64,000 nt of DNA from an uncultured Candidatus Saccharibacteria bacterium (lineage in GTDB: Bacteria > Patescibacteriota > Saccharimonadia > Saccharimonadales > Saccharimonadaceae): contig CAMZHH010000001.1 of assembly GCA_947306745.1 (NCBI GenBank), forward strand, positions 1,000 through 64,999, given 5' to 3'. The notes under the pieces are model-generated. The model worked only from the letters and a program-made list of their open reading frames with translations, searched no databases and was not told where the DNA came from. Both the position numbers and the translations under genes were made by a program. Below, in pieces: positions 46,806 to 62,623 of the stretch; position 1 is the first letter of the stretch, and each line of letters starts with the position of its first letter.

Positions 46806-47312
46806 TTACGCAGCGATAGCTTGGAGTACGAAGTTGACAATTGCAAATGCAAGAATTGCAACTACGAGACCAATGATACCGTAAAGAATGGTATCTTTGC
46901 CTTTCTTGACCTTAGAAGCATCACCTTGGGAAGTAGCATAGCTAACACCACCGAGAATAATCATTACAACGGCAACCATACCAATGACGAAGATTACAGC
47001 GTTAATAATAGTCTGAACCATCGTGTTAAGGTCGTTACCATTACAGCTTTCTGGGTTAGAAGCAAGCGAACCTGCTTTTGCACAGTCAGCAGTACTTTTA
47101 CCGTAAATAGTAGTGACGGTAGCTTTTGAGCCCGTACCTTCCTTCACGGTCGTACATTTGATAGTGAAGGTCTTATCTTGCTTTGCGGAAAGGTTTGCAT
47201 ACTCACCCTTACCGAGACAATCCTTTACGGCAGCCATAGAAGGTGCTGCAATAATAAGCACTGCAAATACGGAGAGTGCCGCAATTTCAAATGCTTTTTT
47301 AAGTTTATTCAT
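46806..47312 (-). CDS. VirB2/TrbC-like pilin-like protein, paralog 3 (Cys-containing variable domain)
   Basis: 168 aa with a GAAGGAG RBS and a signal peptide. Its C-terminal motif is identical to paralog 2 over most of its length. Confidence 0.75.
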   Translation of the reverse strand: MNKLKKAFEIAALSVFAVLIIAAPSMAAVKDCLGKGEYANLSAKQDKTFTIKCTTVKEGTGSKATVTTIYGKSTADCAKAGSLASNPESCNGNDLNTMVQTIINAVIFVIGMVAVVMIILGGVSYATSQGDASKVKKGKDTILYGIIGLVVAILAFAIVNFVLQAIAA

Positions 47313-47390
47313 GTTTTCTCCTTCTTTTATAATTTTCGAAAAACCTTAACCTTATTTTAACATAAAATAATTATTTCAATACCACTATGT

Positions 47391-47702
47391 CTAAATCGTC
47401 CCCTGTAATGCTCTAATTACGAAGTTCACAATCATGAACGCAAGTAAACAAATAACTAAACCAATTACGCCAGCGATAATGGCGTCTTTACCTTTCTTTG
47501 CTTTTCCTGGATCGCCTTGAGAAGTCGTTAATTGAACACCACCGATAATAATCGCAATTACTGCAATTACCGCAAAGAAACCAGTAACAAAATTAATAAT
47601 CGTGCCTACAGAAGACTGCAAATTGCCACTTGCACCAGTACCGCCTTGCGAGGTAGTTACCTGATCTTTAATACTTGCACCAAATACTTGAATAATATTC
47701 AT
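47391..47702 (-). CDS. VirB2/TrbC-like pilin-like protein, paralog 4 (short, no obvious signal peptide)
   Basis: 103 aa with the motif IIGGVQLTTSQGDPGKAKKGKDAIIAGVIGLVI...IVNFV. Its ATG overlaps the upstream stop (TAATG). Confidence 0.7.
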   Translation of the reverse strand: MNIIQVFGASIKDQVTTSQGGTGASGNLQSSVGTIINFVTGFFAVIAVIAIIIGGVQLTTSQGDPGKAKKGKDAIIAGVIGLVICLLAFMIVNFVIRALQGTI

Positions 47703-48076
47703 TAGCCGACTGCCCTCAAAATAAAGTTAACAATTGCGTACGCTAAAATAGCTACAATTAAGCCGATAATAGCGTAGAGAATAGTATCTTTTGCTGATTT
47801 AACTTTGCCGGGATCGCCTTGCGAGGTCATATATTTTACGCCACCGATAATAATTACAATTACCGCGATGATACCCATCCAAATAAAGACAGTGCTCAAG
47901 ATATTTTTAACATGCCCCTGCAAATCTGCCTCTGTGCCACCACCGCAAAGCGTTTGATAGTTTGGCAAGTTTTTAGCCTCAGCACTATTACAAATGTCAT
48001 CAACTGCAAATGCCGAAGTAGTTCCAATCGTAATAATCGCCACTAAGGCTACTAATACCGCTAATATTCTTTTCAC
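47702..48076 (-). CDS. VirB2/TrbC-like pilin-like protein, paralog 5
   Basis: 124 aa with a signal peptide and the motif IIGGVKYMTSQGDPGKVKSAKDTILYAIIGLIV...IVNF. Its GTG start overlaps the upstream TAG by 1 nt. Confidence 0.7.
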   Translation of the reverse strand: MKRILAVLVALVAIITIGTTSAFAVDDICNSAEAKNLPNYQTLCGGGTEADLQGHVKNILSTVFIWMGIIAVIVIIIGGVKYMTSQGDPGKVKSAKDTILYAIIGLIVAILAYAIVNFILRAVG

Positions 48077-48729
48077 TACAATGCTCCTAACACAGTATTA
48101 ACAATTGCGATGGATAGAATAACAATCAATAAACCGATTGAAGCATACATAATAGTATTCTTCGCTTTCGATACTTTGCCAGGATCGCCAGTACTGGTTG
48201 CATAATAAATACCACCGATAATAATCATCGCAACCGCTACAATCGCCGCCCAAGTAAAGGCGTGGTTAAATACGTTTACAAATATATTCTTTGCACCGGC
48301 TTCACCAAGAATGCCTGTAATCGTCTTTGAAATTGTGGATGCTAAAACGGTAATTACTAAGCCAATCATGGCATTACGAATCGTGGTTTTACCCTTAGCT
48401 GCCTTCGCTGGTTCACCTTGGGAGAACATATATAAATAACCACCCCAAATCACCATCAAAATCGCAAGATAACCTACGACACCCACCACGTCACCGACAA
48501 TATTTAATACAATTGTCCAAATCGACACGGTAATTTTATCTTCGCTCTTCCAGTTGCTATCCTCAAGCAGACAAGAGCCGGATCCAGACTTGTACCATGG
48601 AGTTAGACCCATGAAATCAGCCATCGAACCGCAGTCTGCAGCGTAAGTATTTGTAGCCAATACGCCACTAAAGCTCAACGCTAATACTGCGAAGAGGGAA
48701 GCGAATAGCAAATATATCTTCTTTCTCAT
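48076..48729 (-). CDS. tandem (two-domain) VirB2/TrbC-like pilin-like protein, paralog 6
   Basis: ~217 aa with two copies of the motif (WGGYLYMFSQGEPAKAAKGKTTIRNAMIGL and IIGGIYYATSTGDPGKVSKAKNTIMYASIGL). ATG 48729 overlaps the upstream TAA (TAATG). The ORF track offers TTG 48735. Confidence 0.7.
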   Translation of the reverse strand: MRKKIYLLFASLFAVLALSFSGVLATNTYAADCGSMADFMGLTPWYKSGSGSCLLEDSNWKSEDKITVSIWTIVLNIVGDVVGVVGYLAILMVIWGGYLYMFSQGEPAKAAKGKTTIRNAMIGLVITVLASTISKTITGILGEAGAKNIFVNVFNHAFTWAAIVAVAMIIIGGIYYATSTGDPGKVSKAKNTIMYASIGLLIVILSIAIVNTVLGAL

Positions 48730-49193
48730 TACCAAACCCTTACATTAATTACCGTTAACATGCTTGTATCAGCACCAGGCAAGATAAATCCTACCAATAC
48801 CGCCGCTAATACCCACAAAACTAGACCAATCACAATCTCAAAGATACGCTTCTTCGCTTTTTCGACCTGCGCCGCATTATCTCGGGCCGTTAGCATTGTA
48901 ATACCACAGATAATTACACCAATCGTACCAGCTACGACTACACCAGCGGTCAAAATCGTAATCACAAGCTTAATTAGGCTCATTATATCGTCACCCGAAC
49001 CATTGCACATCCATGTCAGCAATGACGCACACTCACCCTCCTCAGCGGTGTCTAATGTTTTGTCCGTCGCGGTTGGAGTATCGTCGCCCGAATCCGGATC
49101 GGCATATACACTCTGTACCGATGTTACGCCTAAGCTAAAAACCGCTAGAAATGCGGCTAATACGAGGCTAATTACTTTTCGTTTTTTCAGCAT
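48729..49193 (-). CDS. divergent VirB2/TrbC-like pilin-like protein, paralog 7 (first gene of the pilin operon)
   Basis: 154 aa with a signal peptide, a Cys pair and a looser motif (CGITMLTARDNAAQVEKAKKRIFEIVIGLVL). Confidence 0.6.
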   Translation of the reverse strand: MLKKRKVISLVLAAFLAVFSLGVTSVQSVYADPDSGDDTPTATDKTLDTAEEGECASLLTWMCNGSGDDIMSLIKLVITILTAGVVVAGTIGVIICGITMLTARDNAAQVEKAKKRIFEIVIGLVLWVLAAVLVGFILPGADTSMLTVINVRVW

Positions 49194-49389: not shown

Positions 49390-49418
49390 TTGACTAAAAT
49401 GCTTATGTGTGCTATAAT
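49390..49418 (+). promoter_or_regulatory. sigma-70-type promoter (TTGACT-17-TATAAT) for the T4SS-like operon, leaderless geometry
   Basis: TTGACT at 49390-49395, a 17-nt spacer, and TATAAT at 49413-49418. The ATG at 49428 is 9 nt downstream with no SD. Confidence 0.7.
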
Positions 49419-49427
49419 AAAAGAGTT

Positions 49428-52139
49428 ATGGGTAAGTGTGTTAAAAACATAATCTTATCTCTGTTAGCGACCGTATTTAGCCTAGTGGCGTTCTCCGGTC
49501 CAGTTTTTGCTGTAACCCCAAATACAACCGTAAACACGGTTACTTCTTTTGCTACCGTCACGCCAAATCCAACCAACCCAGACAACCCTGATGACCCAGA
49601 AAACCCAGAAGAGGAGACCACTACAGAAGAAAATCCTTCCTGTTACGATCAAGTCGGCGGTATTGGCTGGCTTATTTGTCCTGGTACCGGCTTCCTCGCC
49701 AATGTTATCGATGGCGCTTACGATGTTCTTGAGAATCTTATCAAGGTTAATCCAATCCCAACCGATGAAGAAAGCCCAATCCATGTTGTTTGGGAATATC
49801 TCCGTAACATCACCAATGTAGTATTTATTATCTTCCTCTTGATCGTCATCTATTCTCAGCTCACTGGTTTCGGTATTAATAATTACGGCATCAAGCGTGT
49901 TCTTCCGCGCATTATTATCGCCGCCATCCTCGTAAACCTTAGCTACATCGTCTGTATCTTTGCCGTAGATATTAGCAACATCATCGGCGGTGGCCTTCGT
50001 GGCGCTCTGAATGATATTCAGCAAGCCGCTCTCACTAGCGGAAAGGTTAGCGAGGTCGCAGCGAATGCCTCTGTTGCTGGCATCGTCGCTACAATTCTTG
50101 GTATTGGCACTGTCGGCACAGTAGTAGCATTCACTTTTGCTGGTGGCCTTAGCGGTATCTTATGGTTGTTGATCCCAATCGTCTTATCTGGCGCCATCGC
50201 CATTCTTTCTGCGGTCGTCACAATGGCGGCTCGTCAAGCACTCATCTTCTTACTCGTCATGGTATCGCCATTAGCATTCGTCGCTTATCTGTTACCGAAT
50301 ACAGAGAAGTGGTACAAACGCTGGCTCAATCTCTTCGCCAGTATGCTTTTCTTCTACCCAATGTTCAGCCTCCTTTACGGCGCTAGCCGCCTCGCAGGCT
50401 TAGTAATTATTACATCTGCCACTAACTGGCTCGGCGTCGTCTTGGGTATCGCTGTAGAAGTTTTGCCATTATTTATGTCAATTCCACTCATGCGCATGTC
50501 TAATACGATGCTCGGCCGTATCGACGGTCTCATCCATCGCGCAGGCGCACCAGTTCATGGTATGGCCGTCCGCCGCGCTACCGAAGGTCAAATTTTGGCC
50601 AAACAACGCCAACTTTCTTCCACTAGCCATCGTCCATCCACTCGTCTTGCTCAATATCTCGAGCAACGCCGCTTGAACCGCAAACTCGATACCGATGACG
50701 CTATCGCCACTGGCCACAAGATGCGCATGGCTAACTATAACCGTAGTATGTACGACAGCTACGGCCGTCTCACCAACCGCGGTCTTCGCCGTTACACTAA
50801 TATTCAACGTGGCATCGATGCCGATAATCTCATCACTAAGACCGCTATCGACTTCGATGAAGGATTCGGCGATGACGGTACCGATACTCGCGTCCGCACT
50901 CGCGATCTCCAGCGCATCCGCACCGTAAACTCCGCCTTAATCCAAGGCGTTGATACGGCTCAAATTCTCAAATCTCGCCAACGCGCAGTTGAGCTCGAAA
51001 ATACTCGTAGTCGCGCTGAGCGCATCCGTAGTGAAGCAGAGAATGAGCACTCCGAAATCCATCGCCAAATTACCTCCGCATTTAATATGCGCAACACGTC
51101 AAATAACCCAGCAGAGCAACGCGCAATTCAAAGCTCTATCAATGCAACACTTTCCGATGCTATTACTGATAGCCGTAAGGTTGACGCTATCGCCAAGGGT
51201 AACTACCGCGAACTCTACGACGATATGCCAGCCGGCCACGGCCCGCAAGATAAACTCGTCGAGGCATTCGGCCAGCAAGATTACAACTCCATGGCTGCCG
51301 CTATTGAAGTTATGGCTAAGCGTGGCGACTTCAAAGATATCCAAGAAACCCTCTTCGACAACTCTGGTGCCGTTGCTGATAATATTCGCATGCAGAAACA
51401 ACTTGCCGACTCGCTTATTACTCAAAAAGCCGACGACCAGATCCTCTGGGCATACGCTAAGGCTAATATGGTTCGCCGCGGTATGAACAGCGGTGGCAAG
51501 CAAATCGCACCATTTATCGATTTCAAGACCTTTATTAATGGTGGCACCATGCCAGGCGACGTCGATGCTGACGCTATAAAGACCACTTCGCTTGATAAGA
51601 TTCTCGAAGATGTTAAGGGTGCTGGCACCACCGCAACTCAGGACCGCACGGTCTTCAAGGCTATGCTCAGCTTTATGAAGAAGGGCGAACTCTCGGTTGG
51701 TACTGTTGACAATCCAAACCTCCATATCCCAATGAAGTATCTCCGCTCAGCTGCTGTATCTGGCGCTATGGATGGTGAGCAACTTGGTACACTTAACAAA
51801 TTCATCACCTTCGGCTTCGATCCAAACGCTACAACTCAAGATGCCTTCTTTACCGCTAACCAAGCCATTGTCCAGAAGAATATCGAAAGCTTCTTCAAAG
51901 ATATGGCCGCTTCACAGCTCGTTGGCATTAAGAGCTCTACCTTTAAGTCGATGAACTCCGCAATGCTCGCTATCGATCCAGCTTCCGCTGTCACTCAGCC
52001 AAACGGTTCCGTAGTCAGCCAGCACGTCCTCGACGCACTTGCTCCACAAATCGCTGCAGTCAGCAAGCAGAACTATACGGCTCGCGGTGGCATGAACCCA
52101 GAAATCCGCGGCATGCTCAATATTCCAGTCGATCGCTAA
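49428..52139 (+). CDS. VirB6/TrbL/TcpH-like polytopic T4SS membrane protein with ~520-aa soluble C-terminal domain
   Basis: 903 aa from ATG 49428 (the ORF track start 49407 lies inside the promoter). It has a signal/TM segment, an acidic Pro/Asn-rich segment, ~7 TM helices (aa ~120-390), then a long hydrophilic region. The call rests on topology and context. Confidence 0.6.
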   Translation: MGKCVKNIILSLLATVFSLVAFSGPVFAVTPNTTVNTVTSFATVTPNPTNPDNPDDPENPEEETTTEENPSCYDQVGGIGWLICPGTGFLANVIDGAYDVLENLIKVNPIPTDEESPIHVVWEYLRNITNVVFIIFLLIVIYSQLTGFGINNYGIKRVLPRIIIAAILVNLSYIVCIFAVDISNIIGGGLRGALNDIQQAALTSGKVSEVAANASVAGIVATILGIGTVGTVVAFTFAGGLSGILWLLIPIVLSGAIAILSAVVTMAARQALIFLLVMVSPLAFVAYLLPNTEKWYKRWLNLFASMLFFYPMFSLLYGASRLAGLVIITSATNWLGVVLGIAVEVLPLFMSIPLMRMSNTMLGRIDGLIHRAGAPVHGMAVRRATEGQILAKQRQLSSTSHRPSTRLAQYLEQRRLNRKLDTDDAIATGHKMRMANYNRSMYDSYGRLTNRGLRRYTNIQRGIDADNLITKTAIDFDEGFGDDGTDTRVRTRDLQRIRTVNSALIQGVDTAQILKSRQRAVELENTRSRAERIRSEAENEHSEIHRQITSAFNMRNTSNNPAEQRAIQSSINATLSDAITDSRKVDAIAKGNYRELYDDMPAGHGPQDKLVEAFGQQDYNSMAAAIEVMAKRGDFKDIQETLFDNSGAVADNIRMQKQLADSLITQKADDQILWAYAKANMVRRGMNSGGKQIAPFIDFKTFINGGTMPGDVDADAIKTTSLDKILEDVKGAGTTATQDRTVFKAMLSFMKKGELSVGTVDNPNLHIPMKYLRSAAVSGAMDGEQLGTLNKFITFGFDPNATTQDAFFTANQAIVQKNIESFFKDMAASQLVGIKSSTFKSMNSAMLAIDPASAVTQPNGSVVSQHVLDALAPQIAAVSKQNYTARGGMNPEIRGMLNIPVDR

Positions 52140-52192: not shown

Positions 52193-53392
52193 ATGGCTCA
52201 GTATAAGGTCCCACAAGATGTTGAGGCGGACGATAAACTTCTTGGTCCGTTTACTTTTCGTCAGTTTGTGTATCTTATGATTATCGGCGGTCTTGTCGCC
52301 ATCGGATTTTTGCTCTGGCAAATTTTCCCACTATTAATTATTATTTTGATTCCACCGATTCTTTTATTAGGCGTTCTCGCCCTACCATTTAAGAAAGATC
52401 AGCCGATGGAGACTTATCTTTCTGCTATCGTTTCGTATCACTTGAAGCCTCATACTCGCATCTGGGAGCCAGGCGAGCCAGAGGCTACTATTGTTATTAC
52501 CGCACCGAAGAAAACCGATGAGGTTCACTTGAAGGGAATTAGCCAAGAGGAAGCTACTCATCGTCTGTCTTTCCTTGCCGATATCGTCGATACGGAAGGT
52601 TATGCTATTAAAGGCGGTGTCAAAGAGGAAATCTACGCTGAGGCAAATGCCACAAAAGATATCTTCGAAATGGCGCAAACTTCCACCCTTAATCAGGCAT
52701 TACAATCCAATGCTACTTCACGTCATGACGAGTTAGTCAATCAAATGCGCGAAGCTATTGAACGCAATAATTCATTCAATGCCGCGAATGGCCCAGCCAT
52801 CAATCATCATTTCAATAATCCTCAAGTTCAACCACTTAATCAGCCTACACCATATCCAAGCACTCCAGCTTATAACCCAATGCCAACTGTTGCTCCTATG
52901 CCAACGGTTACACCTATGCCGACCGTAGCACCACAACCAACTATGGATCAAGCGCCTCTTTCTGCCTATGGCGGAAATAATCTAAACACTGATCCATACC
53001 AAAATTCTTCAGCTGTCATTCAGCCAGATCTTCCATTGCCAGAAGCTACTGCTCCGCCGTCTTATGATGAGCAAATCGCCGAATCTAGCGAATATTTACC
53101 AGAAGACGAAAAAGAGCGCCTCGAAGGAAATGGCCCTTCTGAGCACCATACAGAAGAGGAGCAACCAATCTCCGAAGAAGCACAACAAGATGTAGATTAT
53201 TACGATAATACCGATGCTGACCAAGTCGACGAGCCACAGCCAGAACTGGAACCAGAGCCAGAACCAAATCAGCAAATGATTGACCTAGCTAATAATCCTG
53301 ATTTCTCGATTGAAACTATTGCGCAACAAGCCAATCGTATCAATAACGAAGAAAACAATAATAAAGACGAAGTTTACGTATCATTACATTAA
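52193..53392 (+). CDS. PrgI-family (VirB3-like) T4SS membrane protein with long Pro-rich/acidic C-terminal extension
   Basis: 399 aa. The N-terminus MAQYKVPQDVEADDKLLGPFTFRQFVYLMIIGG... plus two TM helices matches the PrgI family pattern. Confidence 0.65.
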   Translation: MAQYKVPQDVEADDKLLGPFTFRQFVYLMIIGGLVAIGFLLWQIFPLLIIILIPPILLLGVLALPFKKDQPMETYLSAIVSYHLKPHTRIWEPGEPEATIVITAPKKTDEVHLKGISQEEATHRLSFLADIVDTEGYAIKGGVKEEIYAEANATKDIFEMAQTSTLNQALQSNATSRHDELVNQMREAIERNNSFNAANGPAINHHFNNPQVQPLNQPTPYPSTPAYNPMPTVAPMPTVTPMPTVAPQPTMDQAPLSAYGGNNLNTDPYQNSSAVIQPDLPLPEATAPPSYDEQIAESSEYLPEDEKERLEGNGPSEHHTEEEQPISEEAQQDVDYYDNTDADQVDEPQPELEPEPEPNQQMIDLANNPDFSIETIAQQANRINNEENNNKDEVYVSLH

Positions 53393-53401
53393 GGAGTTAA
53401 C

Positions 53402-54271
53402 GTGCAACCACAATATCAATACCCAAATCAAACTCCGCAAATGGGCGGACAAATGATGGCCCCAATGCAAGCTGGCCAAACTCAAATGCAGCCACAAGCT
53501 AATAATCAAATCGCTACCGCCCAACCACAGCAAGGTCAAGGTCAGCCGAATGCTATCCCAGTCCCATCCAAAGAAAACCCAAACTCTACCCAGGCTACAT
53601 TATTAATATCTGAGCTTCGTGACTCTATGGTCATTATGAAAGATGGTTCTTTCCGTGCAGTGGTTGCCTGCAAATCCATCAACTTCGACCTTATGAGCGA
53701 GACTGAAAGGGAAGCTGTTGAGTATTCGTACCAAAACTTCCTTAACTCCTTAAACTTCCGTATTCAAATCCTCATCCGCTCTCAGCGCGTTGATATTGGC
53801 CCATATATTGATCGTCTCTCCGAACTTCGCCGTAATAACGACAATATGCTTCTTGGTATCTTGATGGACGATTATATCAACTTCATCGATATCCTTTCTC
53901 AGGAAGCGAATATTATGGATAAATCATTCTTTATCGTAATTCCATATTACACTTCCGCTGAAGCAGAAAAGGCTATGGAAGCTACAAAAAACTTCTTTAA
54001 GTCATTTAGTAAAACTAAAGCTCCAGCCATCAACCGCATTGACCGCGCCACCTACGATAAAGCCGTTACTGAAATTAATAACCGCGTTGAAGCTGTCATT
54101 TCCGGCCTCTTCCAGATCGGTATTCACTCAGTTCGCCTCAACACTAAGGAACTTGGCCAGCTTTATTACAACTTCAATAACCCAGATACAGCCGTTCGCG
54201 AACCACTCGGAGACTTTAATAAACTTGCGCATCTTTATGTAAAGAAAGGCGAAAAGGGAGAACAACAATAA
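53402..54271 (+). CDS. hypothetical T4SS-associated protein resembling a VirB4 N-terminal domain, Gln-rich N-terminus
   Basis: 289 aa with an AAGGAG RBS and a GTG start. The segment ISELRDSMVIMKDGSFRAVVACKSINFDLMSETEREAVEYSYQNFLNSLNFRIQIL follows the pattern seen at the N-terminus of Gram-positive VirB4 homologs. Its stop overlaps the next ATG (TAATG). Confidence 0.5.
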   Translation: MQPQYQYPNQTPQMGGQMMAPMQAGQTQMQPQANNQIATAQPQQGQGQPNAIPVPSKENPNSTQATLLISELRDSMVIMKDGSFRAVVACKSINFDLMSETEREAVEYSYQNFLNSLNFRIQILIRSQRVDIGPYIDRLSELRRNNDNMLLGILMDDYINFIDILSQEANIMDKSFFIVIPYYTSAEAEKAMEATKNFFKSFSKTKAPAINRIDRATYDKAVTEINNRVEAVISGLFQIGIHSVRLNTKELGQLYYNFNNPDTAVREPLGDFNKLAHLYVKKGEKGEQQ

Positions 54272-56076
54272 TGGCAAAACAACCACAACTTAGCGCCGCC
54301 GATATTGCCGCGCAAGCCCAACTTCAAGAAGAAGTTGAAATCCAGAAGGCGTTCGAAACTGGTATTACTACGCTTCGTGATCTTATTTCGCCATCTTCCA
54401 TCGAAATCCACTCCGACTATTTCCGTCTCGGTACAAAATATGGCCGCACTATTTATGTTTACGGTTACCCACGCTCACTTTATACCGGCTGGCTCAGCTC
54501 GATTATTAACATCGATGAAGTTCTCGATATTTCTATGTATATTTATCCAGTCGATACCACCGTCGTCATGAAGAACCTTCAAAAGAAGGTGACTCAGCTC
54601 GAGGCTAGCGCAAACATCAACAGTGAAAAAGGTAAGATTCGCGATCCAGAGCTCGAAGCCGCCATCTCCGATGCTGAGGAACTTCGTGATCAACTCCAGG
54701 TTGGTGCTGAGAAATTCTTCCGTTACGGTCTCTATGTAACCATCTATGCCGACTCGCTTGATGAGCTTCAGTTCGTTCAACACAAGATTGAGAATATTTT
54801 CGGTCAGCAAATGGTCTTCAGTAAAGTTGCTAGCTCGCAGCAAGAGCAGGGCATGAATACCACTATGCCGCAATGTACCGACCAATTACAGATTCGCCGT
54901 AACATGAACACGGGCGCTATTTCCACTAGCTTCCCGTTCACCTCAGCCGACCTTACTCAGGAAAAAGGCATCCTTTACGGCATTAATATGCACAACAACG
55001 GTCTTGTCATCTTCGACCGCTTCTCACTAGAAAACGCCAACATGGTCGTCTTCGCTAAGTCCGGTGCAGGTAAATCTTTCACCGTCAAGCTTGAAGCGCT
55101 TCGCTCTATGATGGTTGGTACCGAAATCTTGATTATCGACCCAGAAAACGAATATCAAAAACTCTGCGACGCTGTTGGTGGTGCATATATTCGCTTGAGC
55201 CTTAACTCTGACGTACGTATTAACCCATTCGACCTACCAAAGGTTGTCGACTCCGAAGATGCTAACGATGCACTTCGCGCTAATCTCGTTACACTCCACG
55301 GTCTTTTCCGTTTGATGCTTGGTGGCGCCGCTGGCGGTACTGCTCAGCTCACACCAAATGAGGAAGCCGATCTCGACCAAGCCTTAATCGATACTTATGC
55401 GCGTGCCGGTATTACTAACGATCCACTCACGCATACTTCCACACCGCCTACCATTATTAACTTGTTTGATACTCTACTTCATATGGGCGGCACCGGTCCA
55501 AGCCTCGCTCAGCGTCTCCGTAAATATACCACTGGTACTTTCGCTGGTATCTTCTCACAACAATCCAACATCGATATCAATAACCAGATGGTCGTCTTTA
55601 ACATTCGTGACCTCGAAGATGAACTCCGTCCAGTCGCTATGTATATCGTACTTAGCCACATTTGGAACATTACCCGTGCCAACCAAAAGAAACGCCTTCT
55701 CCTCGTAGATGAGGCCTGGCAGTTAATGAAATACGAAGACTCCGCAAACTTCCTCTTTAGCCTTGCGAAGCGTGCCCGTAAATATTATCTCGGTCTTACT
55801 ACAATTACACAGGACGTTGAGGACTTCATGTCGTCCAAGATGGGACGCGCCATCGTGGCTAACTCTTCCATGCAGCTACTTTTGAAGCAGTCCGCATCCG
55901 CCGTCGATGTCTTGTCTGACGTCTTTAAGCTCACTGATGAGGAACGCAAACGTCTATCAAACTTCCCAGTTGGTCAAGGTCTCTTCTTTGCCGGTCAAAA
56001 CCACGTCCATATTCAAATCGTGGCGTCCGAAACTGAGGAAAGCCTCATTACGACGAATCCGAACGCTCGCAAGTAA
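54271..56076 (+). CDS. virB4: VirB4-family T4SS ATPase
   Basis: 601 aa with Walker A KSGAGKSF and Walker B LLLVDEAW. The N-terminal ISPSSIEIHSDYFRLGTKYGRTIYVYGYPRSL pattern is typical of VirB4/TrbE/CagE proteins. Confidence 0.85.
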   Translation: MAKQPQLSAADIAAQAQLQEEVEIQKAFETGITTLRDLISPSSIEIHSDYFRLGTKYGRTIYVYGYPRSLYTGWLSSIINIDEVLDISMYIYPVDTTVVMKNLQKKVTQLEASANINSEKGKIRDPELEAAISDAEELRDQLQVGAEKFFRYGLYVTIYADSLDELQFVQHKIENIFGQQMVFSKVASSQQEQGMNTTMPQCTDQLQIRRNMNTGAISTSFPFTSADLTQEKGILYGINMHNNGLVIFDRFSLENANMVVFAKSGAGKSFTVKLEALRSMMVGTEILIIDPENEYQKLCDAVGGAYIRLSLNSDVRINPFDLPKVVDSEDANDALRANLVTLHGLFRLMLGGAAGGTAQLTPNEEADLDQALIDTYARAGITNDPLTHTSTPPTIINLFDTLLHMGGTGPSLAQRLRKYTTGTFAGIFSQQSNIDINNQMVVFNIRDLEDELRPVAMYIVLSHIWNITRANQKKRLLLVDEAWQLMKYEDSANFLFSLAKRARKYYLGLTTITQDVEDFMSSKMGRAIVANSSMQLLLKQSASAVDVLSDVFKLTDEERKRLSNFPVGQGLFFAGQNHVHIQIVASETEESLITTNPNARK

Positions 56077-56118: not shown

Positions 56119-56190
56119 TTGTAAATATTACAACATTATCCCTTAAAAAAGTTGCGTATTTCAGATAAATATTATAAAATATATACATCT

Positions 56191-59100
56191 ATGGTCTCCA
56201 CACCAAATGACGGTCGCTATCGCGGCAAACATGATCCATATAATAATATGGAAGAGGCGAGTATTCGTCCTAGCAACATCGCTCGCCAAGAGCTATCTGC
56301 CGCAGAAAAAGCCGCTACGAAAAATCCTAGCGACTCCGCCTCGTCAGGCCAAAAATCTTTTACTTCAAATCGTATTACGCGCTCACTTCAACAATCCGAA
56401 AATAACCAAAAATCCCAACTCCAGAATCAATTCCGCAACTCCGTAAGAGGGAAGAATGAGCCGAAAACTACCGGACGCACACGTTTCTTAAAGAAAGTTG
56501 CCCCACTTACCATTATTGTTGGTGTTTTGTTTGGTGGTGGTGCGTTTTTCTATGGTGCTCAATCCTTGCTTGCACCACATCTCTCCGCTTTATACACTAA
56601 TGCTACCGACTTACAGTTTACTTCCTACTCTATGCGCAACTCGCGATTAATTTCCTATATGATTAATGGCGGCGGACAAGTAAAAATTAGTGGTTTCACT
56701 ACTAAATATGCCGCTTTTTCGCCATATCTAAAAAGCCGCTTAGCCAAAAATGGTATCGAAGTTGGACATCTCGACTCGTCTGGCGCTTTTCAGTCCGGCC
56801 AAATCGGCGGCAAAACCGTTTTAAAATTCGAAGATAAAATTATCGACGCGGGTTCATTCCAAACCGAATTCGCAAATAATGCTAATTTTCGCGACGCCTA
56901 TTACCAAGCAAAGCGTGGTAGAATTGCTGGTTTCTTTGATGATTCAGCCGATTATTACTACAAGAAGAAAGGCGCTACGCGTGATATCTTTGACCAATAT
57001 AAGTCCACTGGCGATAACGATGCTGATACCGAAAAATTCGAAAGTACAGTTTCTGAACGTGTCACTGGCTCCGACGCATCCGTAAATACCGTTCGTCATG
57101 AGACTGACGAAGAAACCGGCGAAGACCATATTCGCGAAAATGGTGAAGATATCGACACCACCAGAGTTTCCGGCGACACGCCAGAGTCAAAAGCGCGCGC
57201 CATGGTAAATAATATTGCCGGTAAAGTTTCGTCAATTGGTGTACCAGTTTGTTCTGCTTTGCGTATCGCAAATATTGCCGCCGTCACAGTTTCGGCGTAT
57301 CAAATATATCAATCCATCGCGTACTTCTTAAGCCTCATGGAACCGATTAGTAAAATGATGGCCGGCGAAGGTGAAGCTTCGGCGATTAATGAAAACTTAA
57401 ACTTCCTTACAACTTCAACTTATTCAGATGTTAATTATGTAGATAGCCAAGGCAATCAACAGACTAAACAAGTTTACGGTTCACCAGTTGAATCGGCTGG
57501 CGCTAAACTTGTTATGGGTAACACTTTATCGAAAAAAGAAGATTACGAACCATATTCCTTCGATAATATTACTCGCGCCGCAACAACTATTGCAGTTTCT
57601 ACTGGCGTCACTAATACTGCCTGCGCTGGCGTTATGGCTGCTTCTGCAATTATGTCACTCTCCGCAACCGCAATTCCTGGCGGTAAACTCGCTACTTTCA
57701 TCGTTGGCGCCATTGCGCAAACTGTCGGTGGTATCGTTTTGACAGGCATTGTCGCTGCAATTGTCAGTGCGATTATTCCATATGTCGCTAAAATCTTCGC
57801 TAGCAACATTTTTGAAACCTACACTGGTATCCCAGCTGGCGAGCTATTCTCACAAGGTGCCGCCACCGCTAACTTTAATCTCGCTACACAGGGCAGTGCT
57901 TATATGCCATCTGATAAATCTGCTGTAAAAACCCAAAATCGCAACACTACTCTCGCGCTCGCCCAGGAAGCTGAGCTTGATCGTCTCCATCGTAGCCCAT
58001 TTGACGCAACGAGTCCAAACACCTTCCTCGGCTCACTACTATCCAACTTCACTTATTTATCCTCCAGTAATAATGCAATGAGCAATATTGCAAACTTCAC
58101 AAACGTAGTTGGTAAATCTATCCGTAAAATTAATACTGTTTCTGCCGCTGACGAAGAATTAACTTACATTTCCAATAACCAAGATTGTACTTTCTTACCA
58201 GGCGCCGTCTGCGATATGTATGGCTTGCCAATTCCGACTTCTGATTATTCTACCATCGACGTTTCACCAGATGATCCCAACTATATTGCAGCCATCTCTC
58301 CAAATCTCGATTCAGACGGCAAAATTAAGGAAGGCTCCGAATTAGCGAAATTTATTAACTTCTGCGGCAATCGTCAATCTCCATGGGGCGTCAAAGATGC
58401 AAATATCCTCAATGCGCTTCAAACTGATTTCGGCATTGTCGGAAACAACCTTCCAGTTGTGAATGACATTGTAGACGTTATCAATGCCGCCGAAGATGTT
58501 GCGAATGAAGGTTGGGCTACCGGTTCAGTTTGTATGAATTCCGCAGATAATCCACGTTGGGATAGTGAATTCAAATATTATCAACGCTACATTGAAGATA
58601 TGCGCATCTTATCCAGTATGGATGGTAGTAATAATACTTCCGCAAGCGCATCAGGTGGCCTTAATGATGATTTAGCTCAAAAAATTGTCGAACATTTTAA
58701 AGATTCATCCAACGACGATAAATGGACCCCATCTCTAACTAAATGGAACTGTGTTAGCCTGAGTACTTATTTCGTGCAATTATTTACAAACATTGACGGT
58801 AAATCCGCCCTAAACGGCGGCGGTAAAAAGGGATGTATCTCTTGTAGTAATGGTGTTACAGTAGCCGATGGTCTAGCCGCCTATGGCGTACCAGTCGGCA
58901 CCGAGCCTCGTCCATATTCAATTTTTAGTGTCTCCGGCCCAAGTGCCTATGCATCAGGCGAAGCAGGGCACACGGGTGTAGTATTAGCTGTTAATGGTAC
59001 TGATTTAACCATTATCGAAGCTGGTTGGGGCGCCGATGGCTATGCTGCCGTTCGCCACTACGACCTAAATCAAATGCAAGATCGCAAATTCGCTTATCTT

Positions 59101-59487
59101 GAAGATTATATGGACTGGGATGCATTATCAAAAGCTACCGGAACCAAAGTAACGAATAATATTTCATCTACCGAACCAACCACTCCAAGTAATCCAGTTC
59201 TAGCATACCTCCAAGAGTATGATGCCACTCATCCAGAAGATAATTCTTTTGAGGGGATCCTTGCACGCATTTCTGGTCAAACAAAAGACGATATCGCTAT
59301 GATGCTCGAATTCGTGGATTATAGTACAAAGATTGCTAATTATGATCCATCTACACGCTATGTTTTCGGCCAAAACGAAACGTCAGAAACGCAAATATCC
59401 TTCGAGGAAGAAAACTTACCAAATATTACTGCCGTAATTCGTAATTCCAATCGTATTTTTATCGATAAGAGGAACTACGTTTTATGA
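56191..59487 (+). CDS. large polytopic membrane protein with C-terminal CHAP peptidoglycan hydrolase domain (VirB1/PrgK/TcpG analog)
   Basis: ~1098 aa from ATG 56191, which lies 10 nt after TATAAAAT. The ORF track start 56152 overlaps the -35 region. It has TM helices at aa ~115-140 and a cluster at ~360-560. The CHAP motifs are KWNCVSLSTYFV (Cys) and GHTGVVLAV (His). Confidence 0.7.
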   Translation: MVSTPNDGRYRGKHDPYNNMEEASIRPSNIARQELSAAEKAATKNPSDSASSGQKSFTSNRITRSLQQSENNQKSQLQNQFRNSVRGKNEPKTTGRTRFLKKVAPLTIIVGVLFGGGAFFYGAQSLLAPHLSALYTNATDLQFTSYSMRNSRLISYMINGGGQVKISGFTTKYAAFSPYLKSRLAKNGIEVGHLDSSGAFQSGQIGGKTVLKFEDKIIDAGSFQTEFANNANFRDAYYQAKRGRIAGFFDDSADYYYKKKGATRDIFDQYKSTGDNDADTEKFESTVSERVTGSDASVNTVRHETDEETGEDHIRENGEDIDTTRVSGDTPESKARAMVNNIAGKVSSIGVPVCSALRIANIAAVTVSAYQIYQSIAYFLSLMEPISKMMAGEGEASAINENLNFLTTSTYSDVNYVDSQGNQQTKQVYGSPVESAGAKLVMGNTLSKKEDYEPYSFDNITRAATTIAVSTGVTNTACAGVMAASAIMSLSATAIPGGKLATFIVGAIAQTVGGIVLTGIVAAIVSAIIPYVAKIFASNIFETYTGIPAGELFSQGAATANFNLATQGSAYMPSDKSAVKTQNRNTTLALAQEAELDRLHRSPFDATSPNTFLGSLLSNFTYLSSSNNAMSNIANFTNVVGKSIRKINTVSAADEELTYISNNQDCTFLPGAVCDMYGLPIPTSDYSTIDVSPDDPNYIAAISPNLDSDGKIKEGSELAKFINFCGNRQSPWGVKDANILNALQTDFGIVGNNLPVVNDIVDVINAAEDVANEGWATGSVCMNSADNPRWDSEFKYYQRYIEDMRILSSMDGSNNTSASASGGLNDDLAQKIVEHFKDSSNDDKWTPSLTKWNCVSLSTYFVQLFTNIDGKSALNGGGKKGCISCSNGVTVADGLAAYGVPVGTEPRPYSIFSVSGPSAYASGEAGHTGVVLAVNGTDLTIIEAGWGADGYAAVRHYDLNQMQDRKFAYLEDYMDWDALSKATGTKVTNNISSTEPTTPSNPVLAYLQEYDATHPEDNSFEGILARISGQTKDDIAMMLEFVDYSTKIANYDPSTRYVFGQNETSETQISFEEENLPNITAVIRNSNRIFIDKRNYVL

Positions 59488-61688
59488 AAAAACATCTCTC
59501 TATTCGTATAGTTCAAATCATTAAATCAAGCTTCTTAATTTTGATTGCTTTGACTTTAGTAAAACCGGCTTTTGCTGTAATTCCAGATGAAAATATTCTC
59601 GATTTTTATAATCGCAACGGCATTTATTATTACAACCCAGTCGGCAATGAAGATGAATGCAACACAAGTTCAACCACTCTAGTCGGTAATGATTTAACTG
59701 AAAAAATGTGGAACTTTTTCATCCAGAACGGCTTCAATGATGCACAGACCGCAGGCATTCTTGGAAATGGCATGGCTGAATCCGGAAATCAACCGACGCG
59801 TGCTAGTAATAGTTCTTATTTTGGTCTATTTCAATGGGGTGGCGGTCGCAAAGATGCGCTTTTCGCAAAATTCCAAAAAGCCGGTTTGCTAAAATATACG
59901 TCCACCGAATATTGGGGTGTTGATGCTTATAAAAATATTCCAGAAGCTGACCTAGATAAACTCTTGCAAATCGAGCTCGAGCATACCATAGAAGAGAAGG
60001 ATCTTGACTGGCAAAATGAGATTAAAAAGACTAATAAACCAGAAGTTGCAGCTGAAATTTTCTTAGTACTATTCGAGCGCGCCGTTGGTGGTAATTCCGA
60101 AGTATTATATTACGCGCCATATGCTGGCCAGCTTTACCAGGGCACTAAAGCACGTCGCGATTTCGCCACGGAATTTTACGAAAAATATGCCGGTAAAGGC
60201 GTAAGCTCTACCGGTAGCTCGGGCAGCGTCGCACAAAATGGCGAGAAACTCACGATTATTGGCGATTCAATTACCGTAGGATCACAAGACGCACTTCAAA
60301 AGAAATTCCCAAAACTTTCTAATTCTAATATCAACGCTCGTATTAGCCGCCCATGGAGTGAAGGTATCCAAATTGCTAAAACTATGCCACTTCAAAGCAC
60401 AGTAGTATTTGCTTTAGGTACTAATTCACCAGGCTTAACTAAAGCTCAAATCCAAGAGGCTATTACCACTATTGGTACCGACAAAAAAATCGTCTTCGTT
60501 ACGAATTATGATGGTACATCCGCCTTCGATTCAAATAACCGCCTATTCCAAGAACTCGCAAAAGAAAATTCCAACATTATTATTGCAGACTGGGCTACTA
60601 CGGTCAGTAAAGAACCTAATACCTACCTTTATAGCGACCACGTACATCCAAATGCCGCCGGCGCCGAATTATTCGCTGAAACAATTTGGTCTGCCATCAA
60701 TAGTAATACGAATGATAACGGCTGTAGCGTAAATGGCGAATTTCAAGCACTCGTTTTAGGCTATGCATGGCCAGAATATCATCCAGCACCATGGCACGAT
60801 CGTATGCCAGCTTACGCCGAAGCCGTAACGCAATCTATTAGCGAAGGCCGCTACGTAGGTGGTTCCGTTGCTGGTGTTCCAGGTATTGACTGTGGCGGTT
60901 TCGTAACTATTCTTGTACAAAATTCCGGTCTAGAACCGAACTATAATGACGGAGGCGGCGGCACTGATACGCAGGAAGCCTGGGTAAAGGCGCATAACTG
61001 GACGTTAATTAATGCTAATGCCGGCACTCGCGTCGACACGAGTCTATTACAACCGGGCGATGTTGCGTTTTCTAGCGGTCACACTTTTATTTATGTTGGC
61101 GAGATTGAAGGCTTCGGCTCCGTAATCGCATCAGCCTCATATTCCACCCATGGTGCCGGACGCGCCCCAATGGCTGGTAAAGAAGATTTACAATTCGGCA
61201 ATGGCGCCATTGTACGCTGGTATCGTAATCCAGACTTCCATCCAGCCGAAACCACTAATGCGCAGGCAATGGTAGCCGGCGGTAATGTTTCAAATACTGC
61301 TCCGAGTGGCTCAAATCTTATTAGCGACCATCACATCACATTCTATAGCGCCGCCGCAGAAGAAAATGGCGGTTACGCCGGCCGCAATGCAAGCGAAAAA
61401 TATAATAACGGTTACCTCGCTCCAGGCCAGGCTGCTAGCGACTCGTTGCCACTTGGTACAGTCGTATATGTCCAAACACAAGCTAGCGGGGAAGCATCTT
61501 ACGCTCATGGTAAGTATTTCCTAATTACCGATCGTGGCGCAGGTTCTGGAAATCTTGATATTTATCACGATGTCGCAAAGCCATCTGATAATAATTATCC
61601 ACCGTACGGCTCAAGTAATTCCGCCAAAATCTATAAAGTTGCAGAAAACGTTTCATGGCAAACATTTAAAGCTAAATACGGGTGGTAA
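59484..61688 (+). CDS. secreted four-module cell-wall hydrolase (tail-lysozyme-like + SGNH/GDSL + NlpC/P60-like + 3D/RlpA-like)
   Basis: 734 aa with a signal peptide. The modules are marked by TAGILGNGMAESGN...GLFQWGGGRKDAL, GDSITVG...DHVHPN, DCGGFV...GHTFIYVG, and the C-terminal LPLGTVVYV...FLITDRGAG..LDIY. The ATG overlaps the upstream TGA (ATGA). Confidence 0.7.
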   Translation: MKKHLSIRIVQIIKSSFLILIALTLVKPAFAVIPDENILDFYNRNGIYYYNPVGNEDECNTSSTTLVGNDLTEKMWNFFIQNGFNDAQTAGILGNGMAESGNQPTRASNSSYFGLFQWGGGRKDALFAKFQKAGLLKYTSTEYWGVDAYKNIPEADLDKLLQIELEHTIEEKDLDWQNEIKKTNKPEVAAEIFLVLFERAVGGNSEVLYYAPYAGQLYQGTKARRDFATEFYEKYAGKGVSSTGSSGSVAQNGEKLTIIGDSITVGSQDALQKKFPKLSNSNINARISRPWSEGIQIAKTMPLQSTVVFALGTNSPGLTKAQIQEAITTIGTDKKIVFVTNYDGTSAFDSNNRLFQELAKENSNIIIADWATTVSKEPNTYLYSDHVHPNAAGAELFAETIWSAINSNTNDNGCSVNGEFQALVLGYAWPEYHPAPWHDRMPAYAEAVTQSISEGRYVGGSVAGVPGIDCGGFVTILVQNSGLEPNYNDGGGGTDTQEAWVKAHNWTLINANAGTRVDTSLLQPGDVAFSSGHTFIYVGEIEGFGSVIASASYSTHGAGRAPMAGKEDLQFGNGAIVRWYRNPDFHPAETTNAQAMVAGGNVSNTAPSGSNLISDHHITFYSAAAEENGGYAGRNASEKYNNGYLAPGQAASDSLPLGTVVYVQTQASGEASYAHGKYFLITDRGAGSGNLDIYHDVAKPSDNNYPPYGSSNSAKIYKVAENVSWQTFKAKYGW

Positions 61689-61690
61689 AA

Positions 61691-62623
61691 ATGGATAAGA
61701 TTCAGAAAAAAGCAAAAATCTTTTGGAATAACCTTGATCAGAAAAAACGCATTATCCTTATTGCGGCTGTTGCGCTTTTTATCTTTATAATTATTTATTC
61801 TGTCGCAACTTTAATATTTCGTTCCGGCAAAATTGAAACCACTGTCAAATTTGCACCATATAAATCAACAATTACTTTAAATGATGCAAAAATATCTAAC
61901 AATACTACTATTTGGCTCGAACCTGGCACATATAATCTCAAAGTAGAATTTGAACATTTTGAATCATTAGAACGCCAAATAACCATAGATAAGGATCATC
62001 ATTATATTGTTGGAATTCTAAACTCGAGCGACGAGCAGGGCGTTGAGTATTATAATAAACATAAAGAAGAATTTGCAGAGACTGAAGGTATTGTTGGCCG
62101 TTTTCTAAACGAAGAAGGTCTTGCAATAAAGAAAAAATATCCAATTTTAAATTATCTTCCAATTAATAATTCGCTTTATTCTATAGGCTACGATTATACC
62201 GACGAAATGGTGCCGATTATTTCTGTTAAAACTCAACCAAAATACCTCGATGCGGCTGTCGCAAAATTAAAAACACTCAAAAATGTCGACCTCACCGCAT
62301 ATCAAATTAACTTTACACCAGCTAATCCATTCGCCATTTATAACGACATTACCGCCGACGAGCCTTTAAATGTAATTAAAAAAGCATTTAAAGATATCGA
62401 CAGTTACTATATCCTGGAAGGCCAATATATCGGCGGTGAATACTTTACTACACAAATCTACACGTACGATTACGATTCAGATTTATCTTTTGCACACTAT
62501 CGCGCACTATTACACAAAGATGGGGATAAATGGAAACTGGTTTCCGCTCCGCAACCATTATTAACGACTGAAAATACCCCAAATACCGAAAAATCTATCC
62601 TCGATTCTGCAAATTCATTTTAA
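61691..62623 (+). CDS. bitopic membrane protein, candidate VirB8/TcpC-type T4SS component (topology only)
   Basis: ~310 aa with one N-terminal TM segment (IILIAAVALFIFIIIYSVATLIF) followed by a beta-rich extracytoplasmic region. It is the last gene of the operon. GTG 61682 is an alternative start. Confidence 0.5.
   Translation: MDKIQKKAKIFWNNLDQKKRIILIAAVALFIFIIIYSVATLIFRSGKIETTVKFAPYKSTITLNDAKISNNTTIWLEPGTYNLKVEFEHFESLERQITIDKDHHYIVGILNSSDEQGVEYYNKHKEEFAETEGIVGRFLNEEGLAIKKKYPILNYLPINNSLYSIGYDYTDEMVPIISVKTQPKYLDAAVAKLKTLKNVDLTAYQINFTPANPFAIYNDITADEPLNVIKKAFKDIDSYYILEGQYIGGEYFTTQIYTYDYDSDLSFAHYRALLHKDGDKWKLVSAPQPLLTTENTPNTEKSILDSANSF

Follow-up and report, generated by a model that had tools for sequence, protein, structure and literature searches.

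Candidatus Southlakia epibionticum ML1 has its type IV secretion system (T4SS) encoded by the gene cluster SEML1_0006-0019, which is essential and contains neither coupling nor relaxase proteins (Wang et al. 2023, PMC10633639). SEML1_0006 is a protein of 643 amino acids (aa) that consists of a glucosaminidase-like module, a PF18013 module and a cysteine proteinase module, and it was found to be essential by transposon sequencing; SEML1_0005, a PEGA protein, is also essential, as is SEML1_0007 (1113 aa), which ends in an M15B/DD-peptidase fold, and SEML1_0008 is VirB4 (PMC10633639). Here we describe the gene found in the position of SEML1_0006 in an uncultured Candidatus Saccharibacteria bacterium. 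It encodes a protein of 734 aa and lies in a stretch of 64,000 nucleotides (positions 1,000 to 64,999 of contig CAMZHH010000001.1, assembly GCA_947306745.1), which was analysed as a whole and is called the window below. We propose, with a probability of about 0.7, that its product is an exported peptidoglycan (PG)-remodelling enzyme of a chromosomal, origin-proximal Saccharibacterium T4SS, serving as a functional analogue of VirB1 and PrgK that is built from different modules.

The 734-aa protein and SEML1_0006 share their operon position (PEGA protein, hydrolase, protein of ~1100 aa, VirB4), SEML1_0007 being the positional counterpart of a 1111-aa protein encoded next to our gene, and a PF18013 lysozyme and a C-terminal module with a cysteine-proteinase fold are common to both. 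SEML1_0006 differs in that it begins with its glucosaminidase-like lysozyme module and has neither an SGNH domain nor a 3D-type double-psi beta-barrel (DPBB). Since the slot is essential in S. epibionticum and the modules that fill it there are different, it is the slot that is conserved and important, and the module content that differs.

VirB1 homologs of Gram-positive bacteria have one to three extracellular domains: PrgK carries LytM, MUR and CHAP domains, TraG carries SLT and CHAP, and Orf14 carries NlpC/P60 (PMC12857230). Like PrgK (pCF10), TraG (pIP501) and Orf14 (Tn916), the 734-aa protein is encoded in a T4SS operon and would be an extracellular multi-domain PG hydrolase that joins glycan cleavage to a cysteine peptidase of the CHAP or NlpC/P60 type. 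The three Gram-positive proteins differ from it in being membrane-anchored and in using SLT or MUR, LytM and CHAP modules, none of them having a gp13-type lysozyme, an SGNH domain or a 3D domain; in a Pfam scan of the 734-aa protein no SLT, MUR or LytM domain was found. They also belong to conjugative elements, whereas the system here is chromosomal and pilus-bearing, with relaxase and coupling proteins absent (in S. epibionticum). The relation to VirB1 is best described as analogy and not as family membership. When the T4SSs of Patescibacteria were surveyed, these genes were not recovered among the VirB1 homologs; other glycosidases were suggested for the VirB1 role, and these genes were proposed as such substitutes (PMC12102498).

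In the open reading frame (ORF) listing of the window, the gene runs from 59484 to 61688 on the forward strand, starts with ATG and encodes 734 aa, exactly as in the original prediction, an earlier reading made from the letters of the window alone. That reading proposed a signal peptide followed by four wall-degrading modules, for each of which it quoted a motif; all four motifs are present, each inside a module that has separate support. The parts of the protein are as follows.

59484..59576, + strand: signal peptide (residues 1-31) with a predicted signal peptidase I (SPase I) site AFA/V, from hydrophobicity and the homolog pattern
59577..60188, + strand: module 1 (residues ~32-235), phi29 gp13-type phage-tail lysozyme, a putative glycan-strand hydrolase, from PF18013 and residue conservation
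60246..60698, + strand: module 2 (residues ~255-405), OatA-C-like SGNH acetyl-esterase/transferase domain, from the profile match to OatA-C structures
60723..61238, + strand: module 3 (residues ~414-585), putative divergent NlpC/P60-CHAP-clan cysteine peptidase/amidase, from sub-threshold Pfam matches, model fold and conservation
61326..61685, + strand: module 4 (residues ~615-734), divergent 3D-domain (MltA/YuiC-type) DPBB, a putative lytic transglycosylase, from the AlphaFold (AF2) model, Foldseek and transitive Pfam matches

The N-terminus is the sole hydrophobic segment of the protein (Kyte-Doolittle values above 1.6 occur only in 19-residue windows starting at residues 5-18). It consists of a basic n-region, a hydrophobic core of ~12 residues and the AXA-type cleavage site after residue 31, a region that in the homologs keeps the pattern P-T-(F/Y)-A-A-(I/L)-P or the looser form P-x-(F/Y)-A-(A/V)-(I/L)-P. 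Sec/SPase I signal peptides typically show these features; the signal peptide of the original prediction is supported, and the protein may be cleaved rather than anchored in the membrane.

Homologs of the protein form more than 120 clusters. Because of their number, and because the catalytic residues are 98-100% conserved, the homology is not a matter of chance. The family profile used here was an alignment of 93 homologs, and the residue counts given below for modules 1 to 3 refer to these.

Residues 73-235, in module 1, are recognized by PF18013 (Phage_lysozyme2; E 2e-19, 70.5 bits, cut-off 28.2 bits), and a search of the PDB with the 93-homolog profile recovered the N-terminal lysozyme domain of gp13 (3CSR/3CSQ) at E 8e-6. 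E99 is aligned with Glu45 of gp13 and Q117 with Gln54, and each is invariant (93/93); in gp13, Glu45 has been suggested to be catalytic and Gln54 to stabilise the substrate (PMC10394673). The phage-tail-lysozyme-like module of the original prediction was therefore recovered with its conserved residues. Both gp13 and the 734-aa protein are multi-module enzymes that would pierce the wall by pairing a glycosidase with a peptidase. They differ in that gp13 is a virion component made of a lysozyme and a LytM-type metallopeptidase, and the protein described here is cellular and predicted to be Sec-exported, with three modules beyond the lysozyme.

Module 2 shows its closest similarity to the C-terminal SGNH domains of OatA. 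These were found at E 1e-8 when the single sequence was searched against the PDB, and with the family profile at E 2e-17 for S. pneumoniae OatA (5UFY/5UG1) and E 1e-12 for S. aureus OatA (6VJP/6WN9), other SGNH esterases appearing in the profile search only at E of at least 0.08. Pfam recognizes the domain less well: PF13472 (GDSL_2) scores 23.3-28.8 bits against a cut-off of 32.9 bits, matching 21 of 42 relatives at E <= 0.01, and PF00657 (Lipase_GDSL) passes its cut-off of 23.6 bits, with 23.9 bits, only when the domain is scanned alone. Four motifs define the OatA-C domains: GDSV, Dx(I/V)H, G(T/V)N and, in place of the Gly turn that is canonical for the SGNH oxyanion hole, an atypical Block II of the form (V/I)(G/S)(R/V) (PMC5697884). 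All four are found in the query, as G260-D-S262-I, I287-S288-R289, G312-T-N314 and D385-H-V-H388, with GDSI aligned on GDSV, D385-H-V-H388 on DQVH/DGIH, and I287-S288-R289 on V-G-R of the S. aureus enzyme (SaOatA) and V-S-V of the S. pneumoniae enzyme (SpOatA). S262 and N314 are each kept in 92/93 homologs, H388 in 91/93, R289 in 93/93 and the DxxH motif in 88/93. The first position of Block II is Val or Ile in only 50/93, being mostly Ser or Asn otherwise, and the second is Gly or Ser in 89/93. In SpOatA, the changes V460G or V460A at Block II lower transfer and raise hydrolysis (PMC5697884).

Like the OatA C-terminal domain, to which it is the best match and with which it shares the motifs GDS(V/I), (V/I)(G/S)(R/V), G(T/V)N and Dx(I/V)H, module 2 is compact (~150 residues). 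In OatA, however, the acetyl group is supplied by an N-terminal AT3 membrane domain; no fused AT3 acyltransferase domain was found in the 734-aa protein by Pfam scan, and it has one hydrophobic segment only. Lacking this domain, the protein is not an OatA and is only OatA-C-like. It differs further in that module 2 sits between PG-degrading modules and that half of its family deviates at the first position of Block II. Sequence comparison confirms the SGNH fold and an intact Ser/Asn/Asp-His set for module 2, and its nearest characterised relatives are transferases and not de-acetylases. The SGNH/GDSL esterase of the original prediction is thus upheld in its fold and catalytic set, but its description as an enzyme that is often a de-O-acetylase is not, as the domain is OatA-C-like (E 2e-17) and by homology is not a generic esterase or de-acetylase. 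We nevertheless lean towards action in the de-O-acetylation direction, on the grounds of context and not of homology, because no acetyl donor is attached in the form of AT3 and because both glycan-cleaving modules would need a free O6 on N-acetylmuramic acid (MurNAc). A lipase or phospholipase effector was considered for module 2 and rejected as the primary reading, in view of the specific and strong similarity to the PG-acting OatA-C domains.

Module 3 would be the peptidase. PF00877 (NlpC/P60) matches 27 of 42 relatives at E <= 0.01, the best at 6e-6, and no other family competes for this region; a PDB search with the 93-homolog profile found no NlpC/P60 structure for the module at E <= 1. 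In an AF2 model (predicted local distance difference test, pLDDT, 93.8; predicted template modelling score, pTM, 0.90), helix 63-74 has C470 at its N-terminus and strand 126-130 has H533 at its start (model numbering), which is a papain-like arrangement, and C470 and H533 are invariant (93/93). The strand after H533 reads I-A-S550-A-S552, with S550 invariant and S552 near-invariant, and no His or acidic residue is evident in it as the third member of a triad. The top 15 Foldseek matches in the PDB are all PG cysteine peptidases, and include MepS, Tae1/Tse1, PlyPy, PcsB, the S. aureus CHAP amidase and Ly7917, although these matches are weak (E 0.025-1, TM 0.3-0.38); in the viral BFVD, the top matches are CHAP proteins and PG hydrolases at E of at least 5e-3 and TMq up to 0.45. 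Module 3 is best treated as a probable divergent member of the NlpC/P60-CHAP clan and not as a canonical member of PF00877. The NlpC/P60-like Cys-His peptidase that had been proposed here is borne out in its catalytic pair and agrees with its weakly matching fold neighbours, with a membership that is divergent. When module 3 alone was used as the query for homologs, it returned mostly fragments, and relatives only modestly more divergent. A module-3-like cysteine-peptidase domain (50% identical) was also seen in a protein of 294 aa, P0182, joined to Beta-lactamase2 (PF13354) in another wall-related fusion.

Module 4 belongs to a 3D-type subfamily that was previously unannotated. An exhaustive HMMER search located the domain in 49 representative clusters; the proteins that carry it measure 275-2204 aa, its place in them varies, and its partners are Phage_lysozyme2, GDSL, NlpC/P60, a C39-like peptidase and glucosaminidase in shuffled order; judged from these arrangements, it is a mobile domain tied to wall hydrolases. 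An alignment of 26 sequences of the domain was used to build an AF2 model (pLDDT 88.5, pTM 0.82) and to count conserved residues. Foldseek placed the model nearest to PA4485 (RlpA-like), YuiC and MltA, at probabilities of 0.96-1.0, the root mean square deviation to YuiC being 2.9 A over ~100 columns; expansin and cerato-platanin followed at lower probability (E 4e-3 to 0.1 for these five together), and kiwellin and an NSF-N domain are in the same list, in which E reaches about 0.5. Of the 26 family members, 10 match PF06725 ('3D'), a single one scoring over the cut-off of 23.8 bits (26.4 bits), and these matches cover the region of the profile that holds the two aspartates; two direct four-module orthologs also match, at E <= 0.0053.

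In YuiC and MltA, catalysis involves T91-x-Y93, D151 (MltA D297), which binds the -2 sugar, and D162 (MltA D308), the catalytic acid (PMC4499186). T619 (22/26), Y621 (24/26), D683 (24/26) and D692 (23/26) are conserved in the module 4 family and would correspond to T91, Y93, D151 and D162 of YuiC, a correspondence set by motif order, spacing and the region of the Pfam match and not by structural superposition. The first '3D' aspartate (YuiC D129, MltA D261) is not conserved, as the candidate D653 is Asp in 4/26. Module 4 would thus share with YuiC, an Sps protein of B. subtilis, and with MltA the DPBB fold, the T-x-Y motif and two active-site aspartates. It differs from them in a sequence too dissimilar for Pfam, in the loss of the first of the three '3D' aspartates, in a distance of 9 residues and not 11 between the remaining two, and in being extended at the C-terminus by an additional strand and helix, where PYG...W..Y...Y is conserved. 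On the strength of the model and of the transitive Pfam matches, module 4 is a divergent 3D subfamily, so that the C-terminal 3D/RlpA-like double-psi beta-barrel of the original prediction was right and can be refined to the MltA/YuiC type. A collagenase-domain match to module 4 (E 0.8) was discarded as chance. In two giant repeat proteins, P0164 (2974 aa) and P0168 (1009 aa), the N-terminal half of module 4 is matched 10-13 times in tandem, each time weakly and in part, which may reflect homology or composition, and these proteins were left out of the family as being of doubtful homology. Taken as a whole, the protein holds four distinct wall-active folds, where the original prediction had asked for at least three, and the catalytic residues of each, those of the SGNH and NlpC/P60-like modules included, are intact.

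The relatives are all Saccharibacteria metagenome-assembled genomes, many of them from ruminant guts, and they do not all share the four-module form. About 28 of 120 homolog clusters have module 4 and about 90 end directly after module 3; P0026 and P0029, which are 79-81% identical in the core, are nonetheless without module 4. In P0105 (808 aa) and P0117 (727 aa), its position is taken by an alpha/beta-hydrolase-like esterase module (LVFLHGSGE...GFSMGA; 'predicted esterase' in JGI); the tail of P0117 looks frame-shifted or degenerate. From these comparisons, what is conserved is the unit of lysozyme, OatA-like SGNH and peptidase, whereas the slot in fourth position varies, holding a 3D domain, an alpha/beta-hydrolase-like module or nothing. 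The four-module form is a lineage-specific elaboration of a gene slot that is essential in the cultured relative S. epibionticum. It had been argued earlier that four chemistries are far more than a channel-insertion hydrolase needs; this argument is weakened, as three domains are already present in the enterococcal PrgK, no more than three modules occur in about three quarters of the orthologs and the fourth position can be swapped.

The gene is embedded in a T4SS operon. The TGA stop codon of the upstream 1111-aa ORF (59485-59487) overlaps the ATG of our gene (59484-59486), giving the ATGA coupling that had been read earlier, and an AGAGGA motif resembling a Shine-Dalgarno sequence lies ~9 nucleotides upstream of this ATG. 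The stop codon is TAA and the most likely start of the downstream PEGA gene is ATG 61691, after a gap of 2 nucleotides. With a 4-nucleotide overlap on one side and a 2-nucleotide gap on the other, the three genes are tightly packed and would form one transcription unit. The T4SS genes of the window and their neighbours are the following.

46806..49193, - strand: five VirB2-type T4SS pilin genes, from PF18895 (T4SS_pilin) in five consecutive ORFs
49407..52139, + strand: 910-aa putative VirB6/TrbL-like protein, from the gene in the same position of a relative (locus L001), annotated PF19590 (TrbL_3)
52193..53392, + strand: PrgI/VirB3-like T4SS protein, PF12666 at E 9e-12
54271..56076, + strand: VirB4-type T4SS ATPase, from a TraG P-loop domain at E 8e-30, AAA_10 and DUF87
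56152..59487, + strand: 1111-aa membrane protein with a C-terminal CHAP-like region, from hydrophobic segments and a sub-threshold CHAP match
61682..62623, + strand: PEGA-domain protein, PEGA (PF08308) at E 5e-6, in the same position in relatives

The VirB2 pilins, PrgI and VirB4 lie directly upstream, and the order TrbL/VirB6, PrgI, TraC-like, VirB4, ~1000-aa protein, hydrolase (with the 4-nucleotide overlap), PEGA, recF, dnaN, dnaA is kept in relatives. It was found both in a four-module relative that is 86% identical and in a three-module relative whose protein is 59% identical to the query. The linkage to a T4SS that was originally claimed is accordingly confirmed and holds across the Saccharibacteria. 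A mobile-element or conjugative origin was considered and rejected, the locus being chromosomal, beside dnaA, dnaN and recF, and syntenic across species.

From the modules, their conserved residues and the operon, a mechanism can be proposed. The protein would be exported by Sec, after which four flexibly linked catalytic modules could act on one patch of PG. Glycan strands would be cut by the gp13-type lysozyme, through Glu99, and by the 3D/MltA-type lytic transglycosylase, in which Asp692 would be the acid and T619, Y621 and D683 would position the sugar, and the NlpC/P60-CHAP-type peptidase (Cys470/His533) would cut peptide stems or cross-links. The OatA-C-like SGNH domain (Ser262/His388/Asp385, Asn314) would handle acetyl groups on MurNAc O6. 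O-acetylation is described as controlling lytic transglycosylases and lysozymes (PMC6627197); an acetyl group on MurNAc O6 blocks both kinds of glycan cleavage and its removal by the SGNH domain would unblock them. The outcome could be a local opening for the passage of the T4SS and its VirB2-type pilus through the wall. The wall that is cut may be that of the producer, that of the host or both, and since the protein carries a Sec signal peptide, the producer's own wall would be reached first.

Several observations weigh against a T4SS-associated enzyme with four working modules. Only the middle one of the three PrgK domains degrades PG (PMC12857230), and by this precedent some modules of the 734-aa protein could be regulatory. 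Module 2 resembles a transferase and not a known type of PG esterase, and OatA-C domains acting as esterases fall 45-252 times short of the efficiency of Ape, an authentic esterase (PMC5697884). PF00877 stays below its cut-off of 23 in the query (17.1-19.4 bits), module 4 of the query has no match in Pfam (even to PF06725 at E <= 10), NCBIfam or PDB sequences, and Foldseek support for modules 3 and 4 is weak (E of at least 2.5e-2 and at least 4e-3, respectively, with TM scores of 0.3-0.58). The protein also looks cleavable and not anchored, and the Gram-positive VirB1 homologs are membrane-anchored (PMC12857230). If only one or two modules were catalytically relevant, the others might bind the wall, target the protein or regulate it, as is reported for LytM and CHAP of PrgK; inactive VirB1 homologs are known to serve as adhesins (PMC12857230), and the unconserved first '3D' aspartate of module 4 and the absence of an evident third catalytic residue in module 3 would fit such a division of labour. 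We consider this unlikely, as the catalytic residues of all four modules are 85-100% conserved, which argues for selection on catalysis. A true O-acetyltransferase in module 2 seems to us about equally doubtful. Such an enzyme could take acetyl from a separate membrane AT3 or MBOAT protein, or by transacetylation from acetylated glycan, and place it on the MurNAc around the cut, so that the hole is limited or sealed and the wall opener limits itself. The OatA-C transferase domains are by far its closest relatives, all four of their motifs are present, Block II reads I-S-R with the Val/Ile position whose change to Gly favours hydrolysis in SpOatA, and stand-alone AT3 proteins exist in Saccharibacteria, e.g., SEML1_0704. 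On the other hand, AT3 is not fused to the protein, none turned up in a non-exhaustive scan of the window ORFs, Ser or Asn stands at the Val/Ile position in half of the family, and a protective transferase within a degradative fusion would be unprecedented.

The enzyme might instead act mainly on the wall of the actinobacterial host at the site of contact, stripping O-acetyl groups and demolishing glycan and peptide bonds, either so that the pilus or channel reaches the host membrane or so that muropeptides feed the auxotrophic epibiont. Action on a foreign, O-acetylated actinobacterial wall, which was also the original suggestion, is plausible for an epibiont. Saccharibacteria are obligate epibionts whose T4SS is essential without coupling and relaxase proteins (PMC10633639). 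Two glycan-cleaving modules with an acetyl-handling module would make a coherent kit against lysozyme-resistant walls, and the variation of module content by lineage, in the fourth slot and in the glucosaminidase of S. epibionticum, is what host-range adaptation would produce. However, Sec export brings the protein to the producer's wall first, no immunity-type gene was identified and a three-module core is enough in most species, so that we hold a mainly host-directed role to be possible but not the likelier course. A bolder proposal, which we regard as speculative and rather improbable, is that of a self-contained PG demolition-and-control cassette at the interface of epibiont and host, in which the SGNH domain shuttles acetyl from the host wall, possibly onto that of the producer as a protection, host range is tuned by the swappable fourth module and muropeptides feed the parasite; removal of host O-acetyl groups would then let the lysozyme and lytic-transglycosylase modules cut a lysozyme-resistant wall. 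A general autolysin for growth and division, located beside the T4SS genes but functionally independent of them, appears quite unlikely. Multi-domain secreted PG hydrolases are commonly autolysins and the locus adjoins the housekeeping genes dnaA, dnaN and recF, but the gene is translationally coupled inside a T4SS operon, and divergent species keep it strictly in its place behind VirB4 and the ~1000-aa protein, even where the modules change. We therefore retain the PG-remodelling enzyme of the T4SS as the favoured reading.

No T4SS had been shown to be essential for its bearer before that of the Saccharibacteria, and in the only genetically tractable species the hydrolase slot that ends the operon is essential. 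This slot appears as a family of shuffled wall-active modules with intact catalytic residues, in which an OatA-type acetyl-handling domain is kept in nearly all of the 93 aligned homologs. Its new elements are an OatA-C-like SGNH domain that lies within a T4SS hydrolase and has no AT3 partner, and the 3D subfamily of module 4 with its 49 representative clusters; they add to the range of hydrolases known to be associated with T4SSs and to the settings in which an OatA-like SGNH domain stands without AT3. E99, S262, C470 and D692 are concrete targets for point mutation, and O-acetylated and de-acetylated sacculi of the bacterium itself and of its host could serve as substrates, which offers an approach to how an ultrasmall epibiont opens a Gram-positive wall.

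Some features of the neighbouring genes are also of interest. The original prediction called the upstream protein a CHAP protein. The coupled neighbour is there, but the label rests on a match of PF05257 to residues 863-957 of the 1111-aa protein (E 1.5e-4) that reaches 22.7 bits against a cut-off of 26, and a search of PDB sequences with this region gave noise and one CHAP lysin at E 0.35. In the ~1100-aa protein, the hydrolase module at the C-terminus varies as well, being CHAP-like here and of the M15B/DD-peptidase fold in SEML1_0007; since the C-terminus of this protein differs between lineages as that of our protein does, both genes of the pair would swap wall-active modules. The 910-aa ORF had no Pfam match in the scan of the window copy, and its position opposite the TrbL_3 gene of L001 suggests a putative, very divergent VirB6. 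The pilin array is transcribed divergently from the T4SS core genes and matches the 'essential pilin array' of S. epibionticum. For the PEGA gene, a GTG at 61682 that overlaps the last codons of our gene is a possible start, the in-frame ATG at 61691 being likelier, and recF and dnaN lie beyond it.

An identical 732-aa homolog, P0003, occurs at two loci. At L001 it follows VirB4 and a 1102-aa protein, and at L002 (GCA_900089685.1) it follows small unrelated genes, MurB and FolD, with TrbL_3 further upstream, which may represent an assembly chimera or a rearranged T4SS locus. The remaining genes of the window are housekeeping genes. A 1727-aa ORF at 14139-19322 on the reverse strand had no Pfam match at E <= 1e-5, and would be a very large orphan in a reduced genome. 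GC skew is negative in every 2-kb bin of the window (-0.05 to -0.27) and the cumulative skew falls monotonically over positions 1-64000, which is consistent with the entire window lying on one replichore beside the dnaN/recF end.

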